A stretch of DNA of 26,491 nucleotides. Origin: Alphaproteobacteria bacterium. Its GTDB lineage: Bacteria > Pseudomonadota > Alphaproteobacteria > WRDZ01. This document shows, piece after piece, positions 1,520-7,855 of the stretch (position 1 is its first letter; each line of letters begins with the position of its first letter). Both the position numbers and the translations under genes were made by a program. Under the pieces are notes generated by a model that worked only from the letters and a program-made list of their open reading frames with translations, made no database searches and was not told where the DNA came from. The stretch covers positions 1 through 26,491 of the forward strand of contig WRDZ01000001.1 of NCBI GenBank assembly GCA_009779595.1, in the 5' to 3' direction.

Positions 1520-2494
1520 ATGTCCAACTTCTGGTACCTTGGCATAAACGGCAACAAAATCGGCCCCATGGAAGAGGCTCAGGCCAAAGCCATGGCCAAA
1601 GAACACCCCAAGGCGCTGGCATGGCGGCAGGGGTTCGAGCAATGGCGCCCTGTGCACGAGGTGCACGAGCTTGCCGGCATAGTGTATGACCCCGGGCAGG
1701 CGGACACTTCGCAAGTCCCCTTGATGAGCATGGAAACCCGCCCCGCGGAAGCCCATGATATCGAGTTCCGCGTTTTCGGCCACGACCTGCAGTTCCTGGA
1801 AATCTTCCTTGACCGCAGCAAAGGCGTCATCGCCCAGCCCGGGGCGTTCGTGTACAAGGACTCTGCGGTCAAGATGGAGGCCATAGTGGGAAGCGGCAGG
1901 TCGCGCGGCGGATTCTTAAGCAAGATATTCGCGGCCTCACGCCGGGTCATCGCGGGCGAGCGTTTCTTCCTCACCACCTTCACAAACACGTCCGCCAACA
2001 AAAGCAAAATCGCTTTCGGCCCCCCGTATCCCGGCCGCATAATGCCCATAAACCTCAAGCAGTCCGGCGGCAGCATCATATGCCAGCGCAGCGCCTTCCT
2101 ATGCGCGGCCCGGGGAATCAAAATCGACTTCTTCTTCCAGAGGAAGCTGGCGGTCGCGATTTTCGGCGGCGAAGGCTTCATCATGCAGAAACTTATCGGC
2201 GACGGGCTTGTCTTCGTCCACGCGGGCGGCATGATAAAGGAATTCGTGCTTCGCCCCGGCGAAACCATGGACGTGGAAACCGGCTCTTTGGTCGGGTTCG
2301 AAACCACCGTGTCGTTCGACATCGCCTTTGCCGGAGGGCTGAAAGCCCAGATGTTCGCGGGCGAAGGCTTCTTCATATCGCGCATGACCGGACCGGGCCG
2401 CGTGTGGATACAGTCCATGCCGTTCAACCATATCGTGAAAGAATTCTTCAAGGTGCTTGGCATAGACGCGCGGAAAATAAGCCGCCTGCGTTAA
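1520..2494 (+). CDS. TIGR00266/AIM24 family protein with N-terminal GYF_2 domain
   Basis: N-terminal WYL..NG.KIGP...LAWRQGFEQW (GYF_2), then GEGFIMQKLIGDG.VFVHAGG and GEG.F...TGPGRVWIQSMPF. SD ATAGGAG. Confidence 0.9.
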   Translation: MSNFWYLGINGNKIGPMEEAQAKAMAKEHPKALAWRQGFEQWRPVHEVHELAGIVYDPGQADTSQVPLMSMETRPAEAHDIEFRVFGHDLQFLEIFLDRSKGVIAQPGAFVYKDSAVKMEAIVGSGRSRGGFLSKIFAASRRVIAGERFFLTTFTNTSANKSKIAFGPPYPGRIMPINLKQSGGSIICQRSAFLCAARGIKIDFFFQRKLAVAIFGGEGFIMQKLIGDGLVFVHAGGMIKEFVLRPGETMDVETGSLVGFETTVSFDIAFAGGLKAQMFAGEGFFISRMTGPGRVWIQSMPFNHIVKEFFKVLGIDARKISRLR

Positions 2495-3647: not shown

Positions 3648-3727
3648 GAACTTTAACCCTAATGCGATATTCCCGTCCAGTTGTATGCCATTATACAATA
3701 AAAACCTATATAAGGCAAGGAAGAAAT

Positions 3728-4819
3728 ATGCAACAACTTTTGCAGCAGGGACGGCTTTTATTGGCGGCTATCGAGGAAATACGCCGCAGCCCCGGCGGGT
3801 TCCGCGCGATGATAGTGCGCACCTCCAAGCTGGCCGCCGGGCAGAAAAGCCCCGGCAAGATGCTGCTGGCCGCAAGGATTTTCGATGTGAAGACCCGCGG
3901 GACGAACAACGCCCTGTACCTGCTGCCAAGCGGCGACATGGTGTTCATGGGGAGCGACATATCATCGGACGAGCTTGGGCAGCTGGCCAAACAGGCGGCC
4001 GAAGCCATTGCCCAAGGGGCGGACGGGATAGGCGTGCCGCAGGATTTTGCCGTCATATACAGGCTTGACCGGCAGTTCGACGACTTCTCCAAGGCGGCCG
4101 CGGACATGGCGACCTTAAAAGTCCGGGCTAAAAAGTGGGCTCCCGTTACAAACGCCCCGAAACTGGACGCGGGCTTGCTTGAGATGCTGGAATCCAGGCT
4201 GCCCAGCTTCAACATCACGGCGGCTTTGAAGACCCGCGATGTCTTCGACCTTGAAACAAGGTCCGCGGCGTTCACCGAGTATTACGTTTCGGTGGACACG
4301 CTGCGCGCGGTTTTGGGCTTTGCCGGGGTGGACATGCTGGCCGACTATTGGCTGTTTTCGTACGTCACCACCCTGTTCGATTCCATGATGCTGCGCGATT
4401 TCGACTGGAGCGCCGGACACCAGGCCATCGCGCTGAACCTTAACCTTATGTCCATGGGAAAGCTTGGGCAGGTGCTGGAACGGCCTTTGATAGCCAAGTT
4501 TTCCGTGCCCGACGTGCTGATGAACTATGAAACCTATAACGGGCTGAGCGGCGTGCGCAAGATGATAAGCCGCATCACCCTGACCGACATGGCGGCCCTG
4601 AACTGCGATGCTTTCAACGCCGATTTCATCCAGCTTTTCTGGTCCCACGAGTTCATACTGCCGGAAAACAAAAAAATGCTGGGGGAGAAAATAGGCCTTA
4701 TAGGGGCCGGGAAAATAGTGCTTGCGGGCGCCGATTCGCAGGATTCGATAACATGGGGCAAAAGAACGGGCATACGGCTTTACCAGGGACGGGCCGCTGA
4801 AAAAGAGGCCGGGCGATGA
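3728..4819 (+). CDS. Degenerate GGDEF-like/EAL-like domain protein 1 (363 aa)
   Basis: SD AAGGA before ATG 3728. EAL-fold pattern EYYVSV...WLFSYVT..FD....ALNLNL...IQLFW...IVL resembles Rhodospirillales EAL-like proteins. Confidence 0.65.
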   Translation: MQQLLQQGRLLLAAIEEIRRSPGGFRAMIVRTSKLAAGQKSPGKMLLAARIFDVKTRGTNNALYLLPSGDMVFMGSDISSDELGQLAKQAAEAIAQGADGIGVPQDFAVIYRLDRQFDDFSKAAADMATLKVRAKKWAPVTNAPKLDAGLLEMLESRLPSFNITAALKTRDVFDLETRSAAFTEYYVSVDTLRAVLGFAGVDMLADYWLFSYVTTLFDSMMLRDFDWSAGHQAIALNLNLMSMGKLGQVLERPLIAKFSVPDVLMNYETYNGLSGVRKMISRITLTDMAALNCDAFNADFIQLFWSHEFILPENKKMLGEKIGLIGAGKIVLAGADSQDSITWGKRTGIRLYQGRAAEKEAGR

Positions 4820-5982
4820 GCGGCCAGGGCAATAGCACGGACGTGGACGCGGGCTGGGCAAGCGGCATGCAGGGCAACCCGCTGCTGGATTTCCTGCAGT
4901 CCATGGAACCGCCGGACAAGCAGGACTGGCTGGCCGTGCTTCTAAGGTTCGGCTCTCTTGGGCTTGGACCGCACGACGACGCGAAAATAAAGCGCATGGA
5001 ACAGCTTTTCCAGCAGGCGGCCCTGCGCAAGGAATGTCGGTTCTTCCCGATACACGGCAGCGACTCGGCCGTATTGTACCGCCGCGGGAACGCCGACATC
5101 ATAGACGCCATGCTGATGAAAGCGGCGTTCATGTTCGCGGCCGACAAGGACAGCTTTTCCAAGGGTTACGACCTGGGCGGCGATTTCGACGCGCTGGCAA
5201 AAGAGGCCAGCCTGCTGCCTGTGGTCGGCGAACTGAAGGCCGCGGCCAAGGGAAGCGGCCGGGGCCTTGAGCCCGCCATATACGAACAGGGCCGGCTTAC
5301 GCCCGTTTCCCTGAAGATGCTGGAAGACCAGATAATGAACACCGACATGGCCGGCAGGATAAGGCGCAGCCCGGTCGCGGTCCTTGCCGGCGAATCGGCC
5401 CCTGTAAAGCTGTTCGACATGCTTGGCATACCAATCAGCGAAATCGAATCGGCCATAGACCCAAGCCTGGACCTGCGCGGGAACTGCTGGCTTTTGCAGC
5501 ACATAAAAGAGCTTTTGCAAATGGCGGCCGTCCGCCACATAATCCGCAGGCCGCGCAGGTCCGCAAGCGATTTCGGGCTGGACATATCGGTGCGGCAGGC
5601 CCAGGGCGAAGATTTCCTGCGCCTTGAAAGCATGATTGACAAAGGCGCGCGCAAAAGCATTGTCTTCAATTTCGACATTGTCGACATAGCCGCCGACGCC
5701 AAAGGATGGGTGGCGGCCAGCCAGCTTATAAGGCAGGGCGGCTTCCGCACGGCCGTCAGGCTTTGCAAGCCCGCCGCCTTGATAGACGTTGGTTTTTTAA
5801 ACCCGGACTTCCTGTTCGTTCCAGCGGAAATATATGCGGACGGCGGGGAACCGGCTCCTGCGTTCGATGCGGAAAGAATCATCGCCCACAACGTGTCCGA
5901 CAAGCAGCAGGCAGACCAGGCCGCCAGGGCAGGAATCAAGATGTTCTGCGGCGAGCATATAAACTCTTTGCTGAAAGGCTAG
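4816..5982 (+). CDS. Degenerate GGDEF-like/EAL-like domain protein 2 (388 aa), paralog of protein 1
   Basis: ATGA overlap with the upstream stop. LTP..L..LE..I...D....IRR...WLLQHI...IIAHNV.D..Q...A..AGI.MF.G matches an EAL C-terminus. Confidence 0.65.
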   Translation: MSGQGNSTDVDAGWASGMQGNPLLDFLQSMEPPDKQDWLAVLLRFGSLGLGPHDDAKIKRMEQLFQQAALRKECRFFPIHGSDSAVLYRRGNADIIDAMLMKAAFMFAADKDSFSKGYDLGGDFDALAKEASLLPVVGELKAAAKGSGRGLEPAIYEQGRLTPVSLKMLEDQIMNTDMAGRIRRSPVAVLAGESAPVKLFDMLGIPISEIESAIDPSLDLRGNCWLLQHIKELLQMAAVRHIIRRPRRSASDFGLDISVRQAQGEDFLRLESMIDKGARKSIVFNFDIVDIAADAKGWVAASQLIRQGGFRTAVRLCKPAALIDVGFLNPDFLFVPAEIYADGGEPAPAFDAERIIAHNVSDKQQADQAARAGIKMFCGEHINSLLKG

Positions 5983-5996
5983 GCTTTTGCCGGTTG

Positions 5997-7295
5997 TCAC
6001 TGCCAAGGCACGAAATAGTTCACGATATAATCGGCTATGGACAAAAGGAACAGGCCCGCGCCCAGCAAAGCTACCTTTTTCCAGTCCAGCTTGCCAAGCA
6101 TGCTGGCTATGGCAAAGCCGATGAAGGCCAGCAGCGCCGCAGTGTAAACAACGCCTTTAAGCCCCTCGTAAAGCTCTTTTAGCCTTTCGGTGATTTCCGC
6201 GAACGCGGAACCGCTGCCGCCCGGACCACCGGGGCCACCAGGCCCGCCAGGTCCACCCGGACCGCCGGGGCCGCCGGGACCACCAGTTCCGGGAGCGCTG
6301 GTTTCGGTCTGCACCATGCGGCCGTCAGGAGTCCTAAAATACGTTTGCCCGTCCAAGCCCCTATACGACCCGTCCGGGTTTCGCGTATAGAACCCCGAGC
6401 TTGCGTCCGCAGGCGCCCACTGGCCGCCGGGCGTCTGCTGGACCAGATTCCCGTTGCTGTCACGGCCAAAGCCCGGGGCGCCCGGAATCTCCGTCACTCC
6501 CGGTCCACCGGGTCCACCCGGACCGCCGGGGCTTCCGATACCGCCCGGCTGGTTCTGGTTATTTCCGCCCCCCGGACCGCCGCCTCCGGGAGCGGTCGTC
6601 CCCGGTGAATCACCGCCTGCCGTGCCTCCGCGCGGGGGACGGCCGGGGGGAGATACGTCCTGATTCTGTATGGGCACGCCGTCAGGACCTACCGTGGTCC
6701 CGCGCGGCGGGCGACCGGGGGGAGACGCATCCTGATTCTGTATGGGCACGCCGTCAGGACCTACCGTGGTCCCGCGCGGCGGGCGACCGGGAGGAGACGC
6801 GTCCTGGTTCTGTCCGGGAAAGCCGCCCGGCTGTTGTCCTGCCGTGTCGCCCCGCGCCGGCCGGCCCGGAGGGACATTGCCGCCTTGGCCGCCTCTGATA
6901 TCGAAATTCAGGTTCACGTCAAAGTTTATGGGCGGCCCGCTGCCGGACCCGCCGCCGGTCCTTGCGGGCTGTTGTTCGGGCAGCACCATGACCCCGGAGT
7001 TATTCCAATATATCCTTCCGTCCTGGCCTGTGAACGACCCGTCCCGATTCTGCGTGAAAAACCCGGACGCGGGGGACGCGGGCTCCCACCGGGCGCTGTC
7101 CCTGTTCCAGTGGAAAACCACGTTCTGGTAAACGCCGTAGCTGGGGTGGTCGATGATGATGTTGAATTCGGACTGCCTTGCGGACCCGCCACGCGCGCCC
7201 GTGTCCAAGCCTTCGCTGCTGAAACCGTACTGCGCCACCGCCGCGCTTCCTGCCGAAACAAGCGCCAAAAACAATAACGCAACAAAATTACGCAT
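5997..7295 (-). CDS. Secreted Gly/Pro-rich repeat protein with C-terminal TrbC/VirB2-like pilin domain (432 aa)
   Basis: SD GGGGA; signal peptide MRNFVALL..AVA. The last ~70 aa form two hydrophobic helices around a GKLDWKK loop, typical of VirB2/TrbC pilins. Confidence 0.75.
   Translation of the reverse strand: MRNFVALLFLALVSAGSAAVAQYGFSSEGLDTGARGGSARQSEFNIIIDHPSYGVYQNVVFHWNRDSARWEPASPASGFFTQNRDGSFTGQDGRIYWNNSGVMVLPEQQPARTGGGSGSGPPINFDVNLNFDIRGGQGGNVPPGRPARGDTAGQQPGGFPGQNQDASPPGRPPRGTTVGPDGVPIQNQDASPPGRPPRGTTVGPDGVPIQNQDVSPPGRPPRGGTAGGDSPGTTAPGGGGPGGGNNQNQPGGIGSPGGPGGPGGPGVTEIPGAPGFGRDSNGNLVQQTPGGQWAPADASSGFYTRNPDGSYRGLDGQTYFRTPDGRMVQTETSAPGTGGPGGPGGPGGPGGPGGPGGPGGSGSAFAEITERLKELYEGLKGVVYTAALLAFIGFAIASMLGKLDWKKVALLGAGLFLLSIADYIVNYFVPWQ
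6216..6284 (-). repeat. (Gly-Gly-Pro)x7-GG coding repeat
   Basis: Protein-level repeat encoded with varied synonymous codons. Confidence 0.9.
6659..6802 (-). repeat. 72-bp tandem repeat, 2 copies (70/72 identical) plus partial flanking copies; encodes QNQDASPPGRPPRGTTVGPDGVPI
   Basis: Units 6659-6730 and 6731-6802 aligned by hand, with 2 mismatches. Confidence 0.95.
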
Positions 7296-7318
7296 AGCCG
7301 ATTCCCCGCAAGCATGCC

Positions 7319-7334
7319 TTAGCAAGTTCTTAAC
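7319..7334 (+). promoter_or_regulatory. CtrA-type box TTAG-N7-TTAAC (1 mismatch) in the divergent promoter; -10 TAACAT at 7345-7350
   Basis: TTAG CAAGTTC TTAAC, followed by a -10 with 11-nt spacing as at 2491-2522. Confidence 0.55.
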
Positions 7335-7357
7335 TCTTGCATACTAACATAACATAC

Positions 7358-7855
7358 ATGGACGCAGAGTACAAGTCAAAAGCTTTCAAAATCCTGCAGC
7401 AGCAGATTGCCGGCACGAACATAAACCCGGTGACGCTGCTGGCCACCGACTATCTTAACCACTTCAACGAGGTCATCATGATGATGTCCCTGGTCCCCGA
7501 CAGCCCGGAACTGCTGGTCGACTGCAAAAGATGGCGGCCCAAAAGCTATCAGCAGCACTTCCGCGATTCCACGTTCAAGAACAAAGACCTGGCAATCGCA
7601 GCATATAATGTGATACCCGAACGCTATCGCAGTTCGTTCGAGGCCGCGGCGGCAGGAATGGACGAGATAATCATACGCTCGCTTATGGCGCTGTCCAAAG
7701 CCATGGCGGCGAACAACGCCGAGGCGGCCAAGCGCATAGTCGACGAGTCGCACAAGGCGCTGATGCAGCTTGAAGGCATACTGAACGGGATAATCAACGG
7801 CAACGAAAAAAGCCTGGCCCAGGCGCAGTCCGAGGCGGACAAGAGTTTCACATAG
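7358..7855 (+). CDS. Conserved alphaproteobacterial hypothetical protein (NINP.TLLATDYLNHFNE motif), 165 aa, probably leaderless
   Basis: I recognise the motif from alphaproteobacterial hypotheticals. The ATG lies 7 nt after the TAACAT -10 and has no SD. Confidence 0.8.
   Translation: MDAEYKSKAFKILQQQIAGTNINPVTLLATDYLNHFNEVIMMMSLVPDSPELLVDCKRWRPKSYQQHFRDSTFKNKDLAIAAYNVIPERYRSSFEAAAAGMDEIIIRSLMALSKAMAANNAEAAKRIVDESHKALMQLEGILNGIINGNEKSLAQAQSEADKSFT

Follow-up and report, generated by a model that had tools for sequence, protein, structure and literature searches.

The 26,491-nucleotide stretch of alphaproteobacterial DNA analysed here (contig WRDZ01000001.1 of assembly GCA_009779595.1, positions 1 to 26,491; referred to below as the window) encodes a VirB2/TrbC-type pilin precursor with a giant N-terminal extension. 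The gene occupies 5997..7295 on the minus strand as an intact open reading frame (ORF), and the 432-residue product, P0001, was recognised from the ORF list and its translation, from a match to the Pfam family PF04956 (TrbC) and from metagenome unitigs that agree with the assembly without differences. About 340 residues separate the signal peptide, which ends at residue 21, from the pilin core, which starts near residue 363. A first-pass annotation had proposed a protein of this kind, and the proposal stands: the C-terminus matches TrbC, and the same genome carries genes of a type IV secretion system (T4SS). With moderate confidence, P0001 is read here as a variant, probably minor, pilin that displays a lineage-specific contact module on a pilus or on the cell surface.

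Architecture and pilin identity of P0001

The open minus-strand frame spans 5997..7325, with an ATG at 7295, a stop codon at 5997-5999 and a GGGGA ribosome-binding site 9-13 nt 5' of the ATG. The protein opens with a Sec signal peptide (aa 1-21; 7233..7295, on the minus strand as are all parts of P0001), read from a basic n-region, a hydrophobic core and a likely signal peptidase I site between AVA and QY; a hydropathy peak at aa 2-7 (hydropathy window starts) and a modelled helix at aa 2-22 coincide with it. The C-terminal pilin core (aa 363-432; 6000..6209) runs from an amphipathic start through a first hydrophobic helix and a GKLDWKK loop to a second hydrophobic helix, with hydropathy peaks at aa 378-386 and 407-411 (window starts). 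Between these ends lie two aromatic modules and two Gly/Pro-rich stretches.

The aromatic modules are beta-rich and occupy approximately aa 43-97 (7005..7169) and aa 267-332 (6300..6497). AlphaFold2 assigns strands to module 1 at a predicted local distance difference test score (pLDDT) of 62-81 and models module 2 at pLDDT 72-90, both within a full-length model whose family alignment had depth for the C-terminal tail only. The two are true internal duplicates, since their local alignment scores 121 against 34.8 +/- 5.9 for shuffled sequences. They are separated by a predicted-disordered spacer (aa 107-263; 6507..6977; 29% G, 19% P; pLDDT about 40) that contains four PPGRP(P/A)RG motifs and, according to Tandem Repeats Finder, 2.6 copies of a 72-bp unit (24 aa) with 92% matched at 6628-6813. 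A flexible (GGP)n linker (aa 336-362; 6210..6290), built on a 9-bp tandem repeat at 6217-6286 and including (GGP)7 at aa 338-358, then abuts the pilin core. Both Gly/Pro stretches are modelled at pLDDT <50, and the tail helices (aa 362-399 and 405-428) at pLDDT 80-89.

This layout is not a product of misassembly. Unitigs from two termite-gut metagenome runs, belonging to two studies, match 5800-6687 and 6763-7500 with zero differences, bearing in mind that either run may itself be the source of the assembly. Because these unitigs span it without differences in both runs, the join of the pilin tail to at least 230 upstream residues is real and no chimera. The unitig breaks fall only within the 72-bp repeat, leaving only the repeat copy number unverified.

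The identity of the core is supported by several scores. The isolated C-terminus matches PF04956 above the cut-off of 27.9 bits, at 31.2 bits (E 2.5e-7) for aa 340-432 and 31.9 bits for aa 352-432, confirming the TrbC/VirB2-like character first assigned to it, and a PF04956 scan of the whole genome gives P0001 30.1 bits. Against a profile of its own family the core reaches E 1e-21. In a 51-sequence alignment of that family, P0001 agrees with all invariant or near-invariant columns (F365, F376, F389, G401, W405 and L415), and 48 of the 51 members individually match TrbC. Modelled in isolation, the core is a helical hairpin with a pLDDT of 81. The feature that departs from the family is the length of 432 aa, with a leader that is not cut directly before the core as it is in the small precursors of ~100-145 aa. 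Membership of the core in VirB2/TrbC is accepted from sequence and genomic context rather than from fold.

Searches with the extension returned little. Module 1 has no Pfam match and gave no usable match in an ESM feature search, while a word-based search found no homologue of module 2. A homology search with full-length P0001 yielded low-complexity noise only, and the full-length model reached TM scores of at most 0.25 against the PDB, AlphaFold DB clusters and the ESM Atlas. A word-based search with the core alone also found nothing, so that an exhaustive profile search was needed to recover its relatives. Likeness of the aromatic modules to RHS, choline-binding or carbohydrate-binding repeats surfaced as weak hints that were not significant.

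One further observation concerns the spacer. The PxxPxR string within each PPGRP(P/A)RG motif (6627-6872, minus strand) has the form of eukaryotic class II SH3-binding ligands. It might reflect interaction with a eukaryote as host, for example a gut protist, and could equally arise by chance in Pro/Arg-rich sequence.

Secretion genes, paralogues and extended relatives

The T4SS of this organism is spread over several contigs. A VirB4 gene with a weak VirB3-like gene directly upstream lies on contig C107; VirD4, VirB8 and an enlarged, 484-aa VirB9 are encoded on contig C2; and two enlarged proteins of 648 aa (C92) and 491 aa (C36) show weak TrbL/VirB6 matches. The expectation that T4SS genes would be found elsewhere in the genome was therefore borne out. 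Comparison of VirB8 and VirD4 with solved structures did not place the T4SS type. The T4SS contigs and the window can be attributed to the same organism because they share GC content, tetranucleotide profile and ATA-rich Ile codon usage. Ile codons were checked in six genes on four contigs (C1, C2, C12 and C107): ATA is the commonest in eno, virD4, virB9 and virB4 despite a genome GC of 56%, ties with ATT in the gene of the 171-aa paralogue described below, and is outnumbered by ATC in the giant pilin gene (8 ATC, 6 ATA).

Two of the secretion-related proteins merit separate mention. The 648-aa protein (C92:34-1980, plus strand; L006) carries an N-terminal M23 peptidase domain (E 4.8e-20) in addition to its TrbL/VirB6 match; these domain matches suggest the possible fusion of a wall-cutting enzyme to a T4SS channel or platform protein, replacing a VirB1-type enzyme. 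The gene next to VirB9 (C2:3-4583, minus strand; L023) encodes more than 1022 aa and runs off the contig end. Its product has a single membrane helix, a start on the cytoplasmic side and four stretches of 5-fold beta-flower (PF21785), and by position and topology it fits a VirB10 into which a large stretch has been inserted, with the TrbI domain missing from the assembly. A relationship between this beta-flower protein and the P0001 extension was considered and dropped, as comparison showed no similarity.

The genome holds three VirB2-type genes. In addition to P0001, contig C12 encodes P0003, a 171-aa protein that is 62% identical to P0001 over the core; its extension of ~75 residues is unrelated and contains Cys. 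The P0003 gene sits among LonB-like, Usp, response-regulator and ABC genes. The third is a canonical short VirB2 at the end of contig C30, in which the core follows the signal peptide directly before the contig end cuts the gene. One ordinary and two extended VirB2s fit a major subunit accompanied by variant subunits.

Extended VirB2 proteins are not peculiar to this organism. When 1.84 billion representatives were searched with a profile built from six relatives and the P0001 tail, 750 matches emerged at E <= 1e-3, of which 346 reach E <= 1e-10. Most are 100-135 aa long with a core starting near residue 35, and the single-domain representatives have a median of 133.5 aa and a core start at residue 35; at 432 aa, P0001 is indeed unusually long, as was first claimed. 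Among the best 150 of the 750 representatives, 116 are single-core proteins, and the core starts at residue 75 or later in 28 of these, at 150 or later in 14 and at 300 or later in three. Every long relative that was read has an N-terminal signal peptide. Their extensions are mutually unrelated and comprise RHS/YD-like repeats, coiled coils and Ser/Thr/Pro-rich linkers, which are types typical of surface proteins.

Within the class, the subfamily occurs in 26 of 301 sampled genomes, all related to this organism only at the level of the same class; almost all are 1.1-2.5 Mb in size, and several encode extended forms. Genome G056 has VirB2 genes for 122, 226 and 1073 aa in a row, directly upstream of virB4. 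Elsewhere the gene of a 489-aa extended form is strung together with virB9 and two copies of virB8, and in G037 a 274-aa form stands in tandem with two short ones. Some other extended forms stand alone amid housekeeping genes, as P0001 does. The singularity implied by the first-pass annotation is thus not upheld, and its suggestion of a minor pilin gains partial support from the short VirB2 and the 171-aa paralogue in the genome and from the extended relatives within T4SS operons, with minor status itself still only probable. The literature searched, the coverage of which was not exhaustive, contained no description of an N-terminally extended VirB2 in Alphaproteobacteria. The design is real, recurrent and apparently undescribed in this class.

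Several relatives depart further from the usual layout. The 1073-aa protein of G056 (L045:2454-5675, plus strand), directly before virB4, has its VirB2 core in mid-protein (aa 690-729), and a 428-aa protein of G077 (L046:4454-5740, plus strand) has it at the N-terminus. Three to six VirB2 cores are fused head to tail in P0004, P0005 and a protein of G021 (L016:1213-2088, minus strand); the largest of these fusions may be real or may be gene-calling merges. G021 and G173 also carry arrays of 7 to 13 VirB2 matches. In G031, the gene immediately after that of a 570-aa extended VirB2 encodes a membrane protein with several helices (L015:2139-3236, plus strand; more than 366 aa) and no Pfam match, which may be a divergent VirB6.

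A proposed variant pilin and the competing explanations

The favoured reading implies the following route. P0001 would serve the chromosomal, dispersed T4SS of the organism. Its Sec signal peptide would be cut after AVA (residue 21), and the C-terminal hairpin would enter the inner membrane with the Lys-rich GKLDWKK loop on the cytoplasmic side and the N-terminal 340 residues on the periplasmic side, an orientation predicted because of the positive-inside rule. The T4SS, through VirB4, the VirB6-like protein and their partners, would then extract the hairpin and polymerise it with the short VirB2 into a pilus or a surface-exposed channel. Structures of conjugative pili show the loop lining the lumen and the pilin termini pointing outward, so the extension would project from the fibre. 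The two folded aromatic beta modules on their disordered Gly/Pro tethers would form a lineage-specific contact or adhesion module.

The stoichiometry of P0001 would probably be low, or its position at the tip, because a fibre in which each subunit bore so bulky an appendage would have difficulty traversing the outer-membrane complex. The idea of a tip position is attractive because VirB5 was found neither here nor in four of five relatives with extended VirB2, as judged by a VirB5 Pfam model that is insensitive (none of 14 control genomes scored above its cut-off). A tip position of P0001 is at this stage only a lead.

Several observations weigh against the variant-pilin reading. Full-length P0001 scores 26.4 bits against PF04956, slightly below the cut-off. 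The family profile reached no solved pilin by sequence, and fold searches with the core against the PDB (Foldseek and VIA-align wide) returned only generic helical hairpins and designed bundles, a comparison that is uninformative because a helical hairpin resembles countless unrelated hairpins. As the first-pass annotation had noted, T4SS genes are not adjacent: none lies within the 26-kb window, and neither the P0001 nor the P0003 gene is linked to any on its contig (26 kb and 11 kb). In the 64%-complete genome there is no TrbI/VirB10 match, and VirB11 was not identified, the sole T2SSE-type ATPase lying 13 kb from VirD4. The P0001 locus appeared in no RNA run among those screened. Neither homologues nor a known fold could be detected for the aromatic modules, and because of this 'adhesive' is a guess. 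The elastomeric adhesive stalk suggested in the first-pass annotation is conjectural, the disorder of its Gly/Pro parts being a prediction. Finally, a folded 340-residue appendage added at the pilus base would be sterically awkward unless it were rare or confined to the tip.

Alternatively, the hairpin would simply be an inner-membrane anchor that holds a periplasmic protein, perhaps at the T4SS base, with modules that never leave the cell. This explanation is rather unlikely, yet it has arguments of its own. All VirB2 proteins reside first in the inner membrane (PMC2653234), the P0001 gene is unlinked to T4SS genes, passage of the bulky N-terminal part through the outer-membrane complex would be difficult, and the relatives with a core in mid-protein (1073 aa) or at the N-terminus (428 aa) look more anchor-like. 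An anchor, however, would not account for a core that keeps every conserved pilin residue, beyond hydrophobicity, or for extended forms that hold the virB2 position beside virB4 in G056. In addition, extensions that are rich in repeats, change fast and are specific to a lineage occur more typically on exposed proteins.

It is also improbable, and more clearly so, that the region between signal peptide and core is a giant propeptide, proteolysed to leave a pilin of ~70 aa, with an extension whose only role would be that of chaperone, timer or released product. The classical signal peptidase site at residue 21 lies away from the core, no protease partner was identified, and the extension includes a duplicated, confidently modelled module. 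Moreover, independent relatives carry different large extensions, and discarding such sequence would be costly for small genomes. These points stand against the precedent of canonical VirB2, TrbC and TraA precursors, which are trimmed at their ends (PMC2653234), and against the small-residue stretches that could mark a cut, namely GSGS-AFA before the P0001 core and NSAFASA at the same place in P0003.

The possibility that P0001 is not a pilin at all, its TrbC match being a hydrophobic-composition artefact of a generic two-helix membrane hairpin, is largely refuted and very unlikely. It draws on the sub-threshold full-length score, on the non-specific fold searches and on a whole-genome PF04956 search that gives weak matches in 12 of 14 control genomes. 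The isolated core nevertheless scores above the cut-off, the core profile retrieves hundreds of canonical-layout proteins of 100-135 aa, nearly all aligned members match TrbC (48 of 51), and family members adjoin virB4, or virB8 and virB9. An assembly artefact or decaying gene, whether a chimeric join or a repeat-expanded pseudogene, is scarcely credible: the genome is a fragmented metagenome bin, its unitigs break inside the 72-bp repeat and GC-rich repeats can leave frames open by chance, but one unitig joins the core to ~230 upstream residues without differences in two runs from two studies, and the gene combines a conserved core with a proper start, a ribosome-binding site and a signal peptide.

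Known systems, significance and genomic surroundings

In reviews and genome papers, VirB2 is a small protein in which two helices come after a leader (PMC2653234, PMC3556328, PMC12857230). P0001 shares with the canonical VirB2/TrbC/TraA pilins of PF04956 (Agrobacterium T-pilin, RP4 TrbC and F TraA) the two hydrophobic helices and the short basic loop with conserved Gly and Trp, and its genome also encodes VirB4, VirB8, VirB9 and VirD4. Unlike these precursors, which measure ~100-145 aa and have a leader cut before the core, it has ~340 intervening residues, and the head-to-tail cyclisation of the T-pilin seems implausible for it. The extension itself is a non-enzymatic repeat/linker design placed N-terminal to the core.

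An organisational parallel is the rvh system of Rickettsiales (Rickettsia, Anaplasma and Wolbachia), which likewise has several virB2 genes, virB2 apart from the other genes, enlarged VirB6 and VirB9, and no VirB5 found (PMC2653234, PMC3556328, 10.1101/2025.08.29.673095). In Rickettsia, virB2 normally forms its own islet away from the other vir genes (PMC2653234), and the vir genes here also lie in separate islets, with both complete virB2-type genes among non-T4SS neighbours, short contigs limiting what can be said of the other islets. Anaplasma VirB2 has a signal peptide of ~27 aa followed by two helices, and the VirB2 paralogues there, as the most variable parts, are presumed to be surface-exposed (PMC3556328). 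In contrast to P0001 with its 432 aa, the rvh VirB2 paralogues are short. The rvh system also duplicates VirB4, VirB8 and VirB9, whereas one copy of each was seen in the incomplete genome here, and the organism is not evidently rickettsial by enolase identity. The T4SS thus resembles rvh in organisation only, and phylogenetic membership is not implied.

Other systems offer looser parallels. The VirB2-like pilin arrays of Patescibacteria (PF18895; PMC12102498) also consist of divergent paralogues in small-genome, host-dependent bacteria, but they belong to another phylum with a single-membrane envelope and to another Pfam family, whereas the cell here has two membranes. In Bartonella Trw, the amplified trwL and trwJ variant pilus subunits are mentioned in the same source as thought to widen host-surface binding (PMC12102498). 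That variation takes the form of many short paralogues, in contrast to one pilin with a large added domain.

Tip adhesins provide an analogy of function without homology. FimH of type 1 pili, which follows the chaperone-usher route and has an Ig-like pilin domain, joins an N-terminal binding part to a C-terminal part that fits the pilus polymer; VirB5, found at the tip of T4SS pili, is helical. The comparison with P0001 presupposes a putative tip location.

A cryo-tomography preprint on Wolbachia leaves open why dispersed T4SSs keep several VirB2 paralogues and how a pilus functions without a VirB5 tip adhesin (10.1101/2025.08.29.673095). A pilin with its own large outer module, recurrent in reduced alphaproteobacterial genomes, suggests a testable answer to both questions. 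More speculatively, and with considerable doubt, extended VirB2s could constitute a pilin-adhesin class that has gone unrecognised among host-associated Alphaproteobacteria with small genomes. In T4SSs without VirB5 they would seed or cap the pilus and themselves bear the module that binds a host or partner, so that exchanging the extension, from Gly/Pro-tethered aromatic modules as here to RHS-like repeats, coiled coils or mucin-like linkers as elsewhere, would retarget the secretion machine. P0001 would also be a natural precedent for the display of large cargo on conjugative-type pili. Among extended proteins, most full-length TrbC scores fall under the Pfam cut-off, and when source names were looked up for ten representatives, only a three-domain fusion had one. 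Because of these two properties, the pilin repertoires of uncultured symbionts are probably under-counted.

The organism, which is uncultured, is represented by a 0.86-Mb metagenome bin of 151 contigs that is 64% complete, and the metagenome runs that match the locus come from termite gut. Its enolase is 66-72% identical to those of diverse non-rickettsial Alphaproteobacteria, including gut metagenome-assembled genomes, and the enolase scan indicates an alphaproteobacterium without close named relatives. Around the pilin gene, the window encodes LolCDE-type proteins, ComEC, RNase D, AspRS, enolase, SerRS and unknown proteins. A consensus scan finds a promoter-like TTGACT-17-TATGTT element (7351..7379, minus strand) 5' of the P0001 gene, in the short intergenic region between divergent genes, with no indication of function. 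Downstream of the pilin gene and convergent with it lie two overlapping genes (3662-5982, plus strand; 385 and 388 aa) whose products have no Pfam or NCBIfam match. Further along, a 324-aa protein (1520-2494, plus strand) combines GYF_2 and AIM24 domains.

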